From a bacterium (lineage in GTDB: Bacteria; SAR324; JACQKK01): DNA of 64,000 nt. Of the stretch, positions 50,656 to 52,083 are shown in pieces. The position numbers were made by a program, and so were the translations under genes. The notes under the pieces are model-generated. The model was not told the origin of the DNA. It was given only the letters and a program-made list of their open reading frames with translations, and did no database searches. The stretch's first letter is position 1; the number at the start of each line of letters is the position of its first letter. The stretch spans positions 480,001 through 544,000 of the forward strand of contig OZ251219.1 in NCBI GenBank assembly GCA_965240465.1, in the 5' to 3' direction.

Positions 50656-50684
50656 TTGACAAACTGATCGCCACTCCCTATACT
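50656..50684 (+). promoter_or_regulatory. Near-consensus sigma70 promoter
   Basis: TTGACA-17 nt-TATACT; predicted TSS near 50691. Confidence 0.8.
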
Positions 50685-50690
50685 CAACTC

Positions 50691-51357
50691 ATCGTAACAT
50701 TTTTAGTGGTTGAATAAACTGCAGCTATGCTGAATCTAGGTCAGCAGATAATAATTTCATAAACTAAAGTGTTAGATGATGAAGGGGGATCGGTGGAAAG
50801 TGACCGCCTGAGGTTCCGTCATACCGCAAGGTGGATCATGTGTGTCCTTTGTTTGCCTTTTGGCATATGCTTGCCTTTATGTTTTGACACCCGCAAATGA
50901 CGAGGAAGATGAGGAGGTGGACTGCACCGTAATCTCTTTTCCCTCTCCGCGAGATGAGCGTAGCTTAGTTTTAGGCTTTGCGATTAAGGGATTAAAACGC
51001 GGATCAAGCAGTCGGCAGAAACAAAGGGCGGGAGTCTAGCAGCTCTGAAGGTCGTGAAACGCCGTTTCTGTTTTTTGATAAGTATTTTTCTGGTAAGTAT
51101 TTATCTTAGTATATTTTTCACGCTTAGAGATCAAGTCGGGACTGAGTTTTTCAGCTCAAAGAGCCAGTTCGCATTTCCAGAGCGAAAGCAAATGCTCGCG
51201 TAAGTCTTGGTCGGTAGTGGCGATTTTTGGTAGCCGCTAGCGAAGCGGAGGTTGTCGTTGCACCGTAGAGCTTCGCGGGAAGGGAGTGCCATCATCTTTG
51301 TGAGCAGAGAATAATGGAGCAAGCAATGACATTCATTCTTCACCGAGCCCCTTTCAT
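50691..51357 (+). ncRNA. Candidate large structured non-coding RNA (family unassigned)
   Basis: Strong promoter, no credible ORF, 25-bp helix pairing 50779-50803 with 51333-51357, and many nested helices with G-U pairs and GNRA loops on the + strand. Confidence 0.65.
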
Positions 51358-51462
51358 TTTAAGTTATCATTCCAAGTTATCATCTTAAGTTATCATCTTA
51401 AGTTATTATTAAGTTCACTGGAGAAGTTAATGCTAGCCTTTTTTGCCATTCATTTTTGTAAT

Positions 51463-52083
51463 TTATTCTTTGCAATTTTTCAAGTAAATGAGGATTGCCC
51501 CACTACCTCCCATATTAGGAGGAGCTGAGGAGAATCTTTTGATCAGAGTTTTAGCAGTGGTGGTTTGTAGCCATTGAGAGACGGTTTGAAAGAGTATTGG
51601 TCCTTGGCAGCCAGAATGCAGTCCCTTTCCAGTGATAACTAGGATTTTTTGATATTTTTTATGGGAGCTATCATAGAGGAATGATTGGAGTTTGCTAAGA
51701 GCTTCTATTTGAGTGCATCCGTGGAGGTCAAGGGTAGGGTGGGTTTGGTGGGATGGGGAGTGGGGAGAGTAGGGGGTGTAGGGAGTTTTTGGGATAGATT
51801 GAAAGATTTTCTTTTTTTTATTTAGGTTATCAGGTTGGATTTGTTCATCGGTATTGGGTGGGGGGGTTTGAGTTTTAATGGCTAATTTTAGTAGTAGTTG
51901 GTCGTCATCTTGTTCTATGAATGAGATAGGTTTGGCGAGTTTTAGGATATCATTGGCAGGGTTTTCATCAGGTTTGGTTGGTTGGGTGGTATTGGGAAGA
52001 GTTAGAGTAGTTATGGGGGTATTTTTGTTGGTAGAGGAAGGGAAGAGATGGTGGCGGGATTTTTTCATTTTACTTCCTCCCAA
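51463..52083 (-). CDS. Smr/MutS2 domain protein
   Basis: LDLHG, VITGKGLHS, GGSGA. Confidence 0.88.
   Translation of the reverse strand: MGGSKMKKSRHHLFPSSTNKNTPITTLTLPNTTQPTKPDENPANDILKLAKPISFIEQDDDQLLLKLAIKTQTPPPNTDEQIQPDNLNKKKKIFQSIPKTPYTPYSPHSPSHQTHPTLDLHGCTQIEALSKLQSFLYDSSHKKYQKILVITGKGLHSGCQGPILFQTVSQWLQTTTAKTLIKRFSSAPPNMGGSGAILIYLKNCKE

Follow-up and report, generated by a model that had tools for sequence, protein, structure and literature searches.

The window analysed here is a 64,000-nucleotide (nt) stretch of contig OZ251219.1 (positions 480,001 to 544,000) from a bacterium of the SAR324 lineage. The element in question is a long noncoding interval within it, for which an earlier note, made from the letters of the window, had proposed a large, multi-domain noncoding RNA (ncRNA) on the + strand. 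The interval follows a gene with GLUG motifs (PF07581; 48643..50586, +; Pfam Glug E 6.2e-19) and opens with a sigma-70 promoter, TTGACA-N17-TATACT, which lies at 50656-50684 (+) as that note had described and agrees with the consensus at 11 of 12 positions. About 780 nt without a credible open reading frame (ORF) follow before a convergent Smr-domain gene is reached at 51463-52083 (-). Transcription is predicted to start near 50691, and the RNA would measure about 670 nt from this start, or about 580 nt between the two strands of a long closing helix, P1. Both the promoter and the end-closing helix are real, and the proposal of a multi-domain + strand ncRNA is borne out by covariation among seven paralogues and by the lack of any coding signal.

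Seven diverged copies in one genome

The genome to which the window belongs is 1.6 Mb long, lies on one contig and is 83.6% complete by marker genes; positions outside the window are given with the prefix C1. Comparison of the promoter-to-P1 unit with this genome by BLAST returned four further full-length copies, at C1:347951-348627 (+; 74% identity to the window copy), C1:716071-716785 (+; 73%), C1:876868-877572 (-; 74%) and C1:1210645-1211327 (+; 69%), referred to below as the 348k, 716k, 877k and 1210k copies. With a profile of the five long copies, two much more diverged short copies were found, 1572k (about C1:1572427-1572043, -) and 1328k (about C1:1328289-1328795, +), both of which have a TTGACA promoter of their own and form the same closing helix. 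The family therefore numbers seven diverged members: five long ones of about 670 nt and two short ones whose core measures about 220-250 nt. The 348k, 716k and 877k copies are mutually close, which leaves three long lineages in total, and they have 230-900 nt of upstream gene sequence in common, pointing to segmental duplication and not to transposition.

Homology between copies extends from the -35 box to a few bases past P1, and the ACTTGACAAAC of the promoter is common to all seven. Genome-wide, TTGACA-N16-18-TAnnnT occurs at just 56 sites; eight of these contain TTGACAAAC, and seven of the eight are promoters of RNA copies. The short 1328k copy has had its leader, from promoter to P1, replaced by about 11 units of a 16-nt repeat (AGCATTAGAACATGCA; C1 about 1328370-1328545, L013 6370-6545).

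The alignments bear out the earlier statement that the interval holds no credible ORF. At least six stop codons interrupt each frame of each long copy, substitutions between the long lineages are spread evenly over the codon phases (56/51/58, 67/64/71 and 52/39/53), and few indels between these lineages are divisible by three (only 5 of 16, 4 of 27 and 4 of 23). A small peptide encoded at hairpin Pd was considered by eye and rejected, as its ATG frame of 7 or 11 codons differs among copies and the codon positions are equally conserved.

Folding and covariation

As + strand RNA, positions 50690-51360 fold with -218.7 kcal/mol (z -3.56; 0 of 20 shuffles as good), compared with -165.8 kcal/mol for the - strand of the same stretch (z -2.24; 1 of 20 shuffles as good), and the minimum-energy fold includes both the 5' hairpin and a long helix joining 50777-50797 to 51339-51359. 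G-U pairs, which the earlier note had described as mostly favouring the + strand, do so, as do the folding energies. The folds of the short copies reach z -6.91 and -6.42, with 0 of 200 shuffles as good.

A covariance model (R1) built on the five long copies only, and covering the 5' half of the core with 154 positions and 37 pairs, detects both short copies with 58.8 and 54.8 bits (E 1.8e-13 and 2.2e-12). In the seven-copy alignment, standard pairs occupy 97.2% of cells, against 36-54% when the partners are slid by 1-3 columns, 15 of the 37 pairs are altered on both sides, and on none of five measures does any of 500 shuffles do as well, with the reservation that this alignment was fitted to the model, so that its pair counts lean towards structure. 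A MAFFT alignment of the five long copies, scored with a 154-pair model, has 96.1% of cells paired (40-46% when slid) and 16 pairs changed on both sides where 4.4 are expected; 0 of 500 shuffles match four of the five measures, and the fifth, further pair types, is matched by 94 of 500. Fold z-scores against shuffles and covariation among homologues were among the checks suggested in the earlier note, and on both counts, with the + strand fold better than the - strand fold and compensatory changes among the seven paralogues beyond those in shuffles, the results favour a folded RNA.

Architecture of the RNA

A core of about 220 nt is common to all copies and comprises P1, hairpins and helices Pa, Pb, Pc and Pd, and the conserved 3' strand AGCAAGCRAUGAC. 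Long copies carry an extra stretch of about 350 nt inside Pc, made up of Pe, Pf, Pg, Ph with a variable arm, Pj and Pk. All elements below are on the + strand of the window.

The 5' leader hairpin domain (50689..50775), read from the minimum-energy fold, varies among copies, with 82-100% of cells paired in helices 1-4 and four pairs changed on both sides. Such a domain had been described in the earlier note; it forms in the window copy and is kept just moderately elsewhere. P1 follows, its 5' strand at 50777..50797 and its 3' strand at 51339..51359, where homology between copies ends. Its 20 pairs are formed in 99% of cells, with three changed on both sides, and the duplex forms in seven of seven copies with -23.7 to -34.5 kcal/mol. 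In the 1210k copy, four and five bases have been lost at matching places of its two strands. These compensatory changes and matched deletions uphold the closing helix that had been recognised in the window.

Within P1, hairpin Pa (50800..50839) presents the conserved loop UGAGGUUC(C)GUCAnAnCCG on a stem in which 5 of 10 pairs have changed on both sides (helix 1, seven copies); the stem has been re-sequenced yet still pairs, as GACCGCC/GGUGGAUC in long copies and as AGCCUGA/UCAGGCU and AGUGCC/GGCACU in the short ones. The variable hairpin Pb (50840..50892) has changed on both sides at 7 of 7 pairs among the seven copies (helix 3). The 5' strand of the long-range helix Pc, GCAAAUGACGA (50893..50903), pairs with 51252-51261 through 10 pairs, with 100% of cells paired. 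Among long copies, Pc shows one-sided changes only (3' strand UYGUCRUUGC), and in the short copies it takes the form of GCAAGUG with CAUUUGC or CACUUUGC. Hairpin Pd (50904..50940) contains the most conserved stretch, GAGGAGGU...UGCACCGnAAUCUCUU, which is nearly invariant in all seven copies.

The extra domain of the long form begins with hairpin Pe (50942..50990), whose tip AGCTTA/TAGGCT the 1210k copy has lost and the 877k group has replaced by CUAGG/CCUAG. It is followed by a joining strand, AUUAAAACGCGGAUCAAGCAGUC (50991..51014), that is nearly invariant in the five long copies and unpaired in the consensus fold. The Pf domain (51015..51071), also confined to the long form, consists of GCAGAAAC/GUUUCUGU, an inner hairpin and GAAGGUCGUGRAACGCC; its pairs (helices 16-18) are invariant in five of five long copies, that is, conserved and uninformative for covariation. 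The variable hairpin Pg (51076..51108; helices 19-20) has 93-100% of cells paired and two pairs changed on both sides. At 51129..51239, Ph (GAUCAAG/CUUGGUC) encloses a variable arm and is followed by hairpin Pj (UAGUGGC/GCCGCUA); in other lineages Ph becomes ACCGAG/CUCGGU, and in the 1210k copy Pj becomes UAGCAGUACC/GGGUAUUUGCUA. MAFFT misaligned this stretch, and its pairs were read by eye from the alignments and stand outside the formal pair counts. The close long copies (L008-L010) differ in the number of 13-nt repeats (GCCAGTTTGCATT-like) in the variable arm (alignment A2, columns 485-540), which indicates that the repeat instability of this genome also acts, and is tolerated, inside the RNA gene. 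Pk (GCGAAGC/GCUUCGC; 51240..51276; helix 21) has 96.7% of cells paired and one pair changed on both sides. As its loop contains the 3' strand of Pc (51252-51261), Pc and Pk, if formed together, would constitute a pseudoknot. The RNA closes with hairpin Pl and the conserved 3' strand GGAGCAAGCRAUGACAUUC (51289..51338; helices 22-23, invariant pairs), which reappears in the short copies as AGCAAUAGCAC and AGCAGUAGCAU.

The inner helices that had been drawn from the window copy fared unevenly. Four are supported elsewhere: AGCTTA/TAGGCT, through its replacement by CTAGG/CCTAG and its deletion in the copies named above; GATCAAG/CTTGGTC, which is ACCGAG/CTCGGT in other copies; and TAGTGGC/GCCGCTA and GCGAAGC/GCTTCGC. 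Another four fail: GTCCTTTGTTT/AAACAAAGGGC occurs in the window copy only, TGCTTG/CAAGCA and GCATTT/AAATGC are likewise present solely there, and CGCAAA/TTTGCG is broken in the 877k group. Both GTCCTTTGTTT/AAACAAAGGGC and CGCAAA/TTTGCG compete with Pb and Pc, the helices that covary or are conserved. GTCAT/ATGAC and GTTTTGA/TTAAAAC are invariant or weakly kept across copies and so uninformative. Judged by the other copies, about half of these inner helices are wrong. The GCAA and GAAA tetraloops that had been pointed out do exist in the window copy; GCAA is found there only, GAAA is AAGU in the 1210k copy, and GNRA loops are not conserved in the family.

Genomic neighbourhood and transcript ends

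A same-strand GLUG-motif gene precedes four of the five long copies, with 70-145 nt between its stop codon and the copy. In the three close copies, a clear hairpin with a T-run separates that gene from the RNA promoter. The short 1572k copy lies 2.1 kb upstream of another GLUG array. The genome encodes about 55 GLUG-like genes, which occupy about 145 kb (about 9% of its DNA) in co-oriented arrays at C1:310-351, 691-716, 793-812, 871-908, 1342-1357 and 1565-1570 kb, and the RNA copies stand at or near the distal ends of such arrays, in the same orientation as the arrays nearby. At least 150 GLUG motifs are present in this genome, compared with none in the one other genome of its genus that was examined; among the 87 further genomes of the phylum that were searched, just 2 have any. 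Look-up of the protein clusters of the neighbouring GLUG protein returned hypothetical or GLUG clusters only, with no functional lead, and a literature search joining the GLUG motif with noncoding RNA found nothing.

Downstream of the RNA, a convergent gene follows the window, 716k, 1210k and 1572k copies (4 of 7), and a same-strand GLUG gene comes next after the 348k and 877k copies. Among 28 neighbouring ORFs compared with Pfam, 22 were matched (GLUG, repair or helicase proteins and metabolic enzymes) and six were unmatched; no transposase or nuclease family was found among them. The 1210k copy sits between converging genes for a UvrD/GajB-like helicase (L011 4197-6596, +) and an OLD/AriA/GajA-like ATPase (L011 7372-9261, -), which may be a defence island.

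Apart from the window copy, all copies (six of seven) are followed by a C-rich, G-poor tract, with a C-minus-G excess that at most 6% of random 80-nt windows match. The 80 nt past the RNA hold 43-45 C and 2 G at 877k and 716k, 39 C and 9 G at 348k, and 31 C and 14 G at 1572k. These tracts could be Rho loading sites or slippage-prone tracts. Right after the 877k, 348k, 716k and 1572k copies, runs of C (up to 10) alternate with runs of A. In the window, an imperfect 13-nt tandem repeat (AAGTTATCATCTT, about four units) begins right at the RNA end (51357-51413).

Known RNA families and other genomes

No match at gathering threshold was found in the whole 64-kb window among the 4227 models of Rfam 15, which include OLE, ROOL, GOLLD, HEARO, raiA, RNase P, tmRNA, 6S and group I and II introns. 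When E values up to 10 were admitted, the long copy gave 11 unrelated chance matches, mostly eukaryotic (the best 21.9 bits against a threshold of 50), and the short copies gave four and one; the chance matches of both forms were to eukaryotic miRNA, snoRNA and lncRNA models. The Rfam search, proposed earlier as the check on novelty, thus left the suggestion of a possibly new class standing. Likewise, the reported absence of RNase P, tmRNA and group II signatures agrees with the lack of Rfam matches, and RNase P RNA and tmRNA are encoded elsewhere: the sole RF00010 match, at C1:225900-226344 (256.8 bits), is far from all seven copies, and the tmRNA gene (C1:1475817-1476194) is also away from them. 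No group II intron model appears among the matches at E up to 10, and PF00078 (RVT_1) has no match in the genome, at its completeness of 83.6%. The same is true of the PF07282 zinc ribbon, considered with a TnpB/IscB omega RNA in mind (IscB itself was not searched for). The absence of RVT_1 and of the TnpB zinc ribbon argues against an origin from a group II intron, a retron, a diversity-generating retroelement (DGR) or an omega RNA.

An antisense RNA was considered by comparing five conserved unpaired segments with the start regions of 995 ORFs, and no specific target emerged. All five segments bind 56 GLUG-like genes slightly better (p <0.0001 to 0.03), which we read as a composition effect because every segment shows it and the genes are paralogues.

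The family was found in no genome other than its own. BLAST found homologues in 0 of 40 relatives, and the covariance models found none in 18 genomes of the family (R1), 63 of the order (R2) or 87 of the phylum (R2), a small phylum represented here by 88 species genomes including the window's own; these scans scored 34-150 first-look candidates per genome, so that weak matches may have been missed. In five chosen genomes, the covariance model returned noise only (E 0.69 or worse). An exact-match scan for GAGGAGGT-N3-8-TGCACCGNAATCTC, a pattern invariant in all seven copies, gave four matches in 185,579 species genomes, six in 241 million metagenome records and two in viral contigs, all attributable to chance, as nhmmer or the model found similarity extending at most over the pattern itself. 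Two further scans of viral contigs gave zero and nine matches, none confirmed by R2; in all these searches, records of the window's own genome may have been hidden. The one other genome of the same genus that was examined is without the RNA, with another gene after 164 nt at the syntenic nadC-smr site; it is a distant relative, the Smr proteins being just 41% identical. Photosystem reaction-centre genes were not found in the window's genome.

Alternative explanations and a proposed role

The copies might instead be cis-acting leaders or processive anti-termination RNAs of the GLUG arrays, their promoter driving downstream GLUG genes and their fold controlling read-through or translation. Such an arrangement would suit the same-strand GLUG gene that follows the 348k and 877k copies, the lack of an intrinsic terminator behind the window copy and the shared orientation of all copies and nearby arrays. 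We nevertheless regard it as quite unlikely: the convergent gene that four of the seven copies face leaves nothing downstream to control, which argues that the RNA is not a leader, the copies are placed distally in the arrays, at or near the end and not at the head, and the C-rich, G-poor tracts behind six of the seven could stop transcription.

A non-autonomous mobile or selfish repeat without a role for the cell, whether resembling a miniature inverted-repeat transposable element (MITE) or a remnant RNA of a retroelement or RNA-guided transposon, would account for seven copies in 1.6 Mb with none detected in relatives, for the sharp homology borders of the window and 1210k copies and for one copy lying between defence-like genes. 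It is very unlikely, as base pairs and promoter have been kept despite 26-31% divergence and three similar copies were duplicated along with flanking gene sequence. The borders (ACTTGACAAAC... / ...CUUUCAUUC) are not inverted repeats and, by eye, neither terminal inverted repeats nor flanking direct repeats of the target-site kind were seen there. RVT_1 and the TnpB zinc ribbon are also found nowhere in the genome, and no group II model matches. The earlier note had named many copies with target-site duplications as the mark of a MITE; several copies do exist, yet they are old and diverged, with promoter and pairing intact and with neither kind of repeat.

We judge it highly improbable that the RNA is a very diverged member of a known family (RNase P, tmRNA, 6S, OLE, ROOL, GOLLD or HEARO) missed by the Rfam models. 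A closing helix, a multi-way junction and conserved purine-rich strands are generic to such RNAs, and the lineage is poorly sampled; against this stand the absence of any match at gathering score in the 64-kb window, with chance matches only at E up to 10, and the canonical RNase P RNA and tmRNA encoded elsewhere. Decayed coding paralogues or plain duplicated intergenic DNA with structure by chance, suggested by the abundance of repeats and duplications in this genome and by - strand open stretches of up to 92 codons, are extremely improbable, given that no frame is kept between copies, codon phase is absent, indels are mostly not multiples of three, 96-97% of cells are paired against 36-54% in slid controls, and a long-copy model detects the short copies.

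We consider it likely that the seven copies form a gene family encoding a stable, highly structured ncRNA made as independent, trans-acting transcripts. The structured RNA family is real and is apparently a new RNA class. Each copy would be its own transcript from a near-consensus sigma-70 promoter, its leader perhaps trimmed at the long P1 stem, whose 20-25 base pairs (bp) may protect the RNA ends or direct their trimming, and its 3' end would arise through Rho-dependent termination in the C-rich, G-poor tract. The RNA would then work in trans as a folded molecule. Its invariant loops (UGAGGUUCCGUCA, GAGGAGGU...UGCACCGUAAUC and AGCAAGCRAUGAC) are candidate contact sites for a protein or another RNA, a reading we favour because they lie between freely varying stems. 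As such it would serve to scaffold a ribonucleoprotein or an RNA-only assembly, and would not be an antisense regulator. The family probably spread by segmental duplication along with the 3' ends of GLUG-motif surface-protein genes. That the job of the RNA is tied to expression or export of the expanded GLUG family is a tentative suggestion. A broader picture is more speculative still: a new large-RNA class whose core of about 220 nt works alone in the short form or with the 350-nt accessory domain in the long form, with seven genes meeting high demand or supplying specialised versions, and with the core acting as a ribozyme or as the heart of an RNA-protein machine that serves GLUG surface proteins.

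Several observations weigh against this interpretation. The RNA family is known here from genomic sequence alone, and from one genome; a look-up of sequencing runs containing this stretch listed no RNA run, the two runs that contain it belonging to one sample and being probably the source assembly. All covariation comes from paralogues within that genome (three long lineages and two short copies), the core pairs of helices 6, 7, 11-13, 16, 22 and 23 of the 154-pair model are invariant and thus uninformative for covariation, and the seven-copy counts have the lean towards structure noted above. No intrinsic terminator was found after the window copy. As for the GLUG link, two arrays (793-812 kb and 1342-1357 kb) lack an RNA copy, neither the 1210k nor the 1328k copy has a GLUG neighbour, and the association reflects few independent events, three of the long copies being recent duplicates.

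To our knowledge, large and intricately folded bacterial RNAs are rare, and every one discovered to date has revealed biology that had not been anticipated, for example ribozymes, membrane-bound ribonucleoproteins and RNA-only cages. The present family stands out for its seven paralogues in 1.6 Mb, for naturally occurring short and long forms that delimit a minimal core, and for its physical association with a surface-protein family that has expanded massively in an organism whose genome is reduced. Covariation among the paralogues suffices for a testable secondary structure, so that the RNA is ready for study in vitro before the organism is cultivated.

Comparison with known systems

ORF-less group II introns are similar in being multi-domain RNAs of about 600-700 nt with several genomic copies; the present RNA differs in lacking an Rfam match, in having its own promoter and lying outside any host gene, and in belonging to a genome without a reverse transcriptase. 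Stable RNAs of the RNase P type likewise have a strong promoter, ends joined by a P1-like helix, a junction of several helices and purine-rich joining strands that are conserved, and by comparison with them the long terminal stem of the present RNA could be a processing site. Unlike RNase P RNA, whose canonical gene lies elsewhere in the genome, the present RNA has no Rfam similarity.

Sibling small RNA (sRNA) families such as Qrr and the CsrB/RsmY type are also represented by several diverged paralogues in a genome, which share a conserved core and each have a conserved promoter of their own, and CsrA is encoded in the window's genome. These sRNAs are about 100-350 nt long, form simple hairpins and act through short antisense seeds or repeated GGA loops, whereas the present RNA folds into a large nested structure that includes long-range helices, and no specific target complementarity was found for it.

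OLE, ROOL and GOLLD resemble it in size (about 600-800 nt), in their many hairpins set on long-range helices and in their conserved unpaired strands between covarying stems, and the biochemical function of those RNAs is unknown or partly known. They are usually single-copy and known from Bacillota, phages or metagenomes. In contrast, the present RNA matches none of their Rfam models, is found beside GLUG genes and has seven paralogues, in two size classes, within a single small genome from another phylum that is itself small. According to PMC12286853, OLE, ROOL and GOLLD each form homo-oligomeric RNA-only complexes, and by analogy with what is described there an assembly of this kind is a possibility for the present RNA as well.

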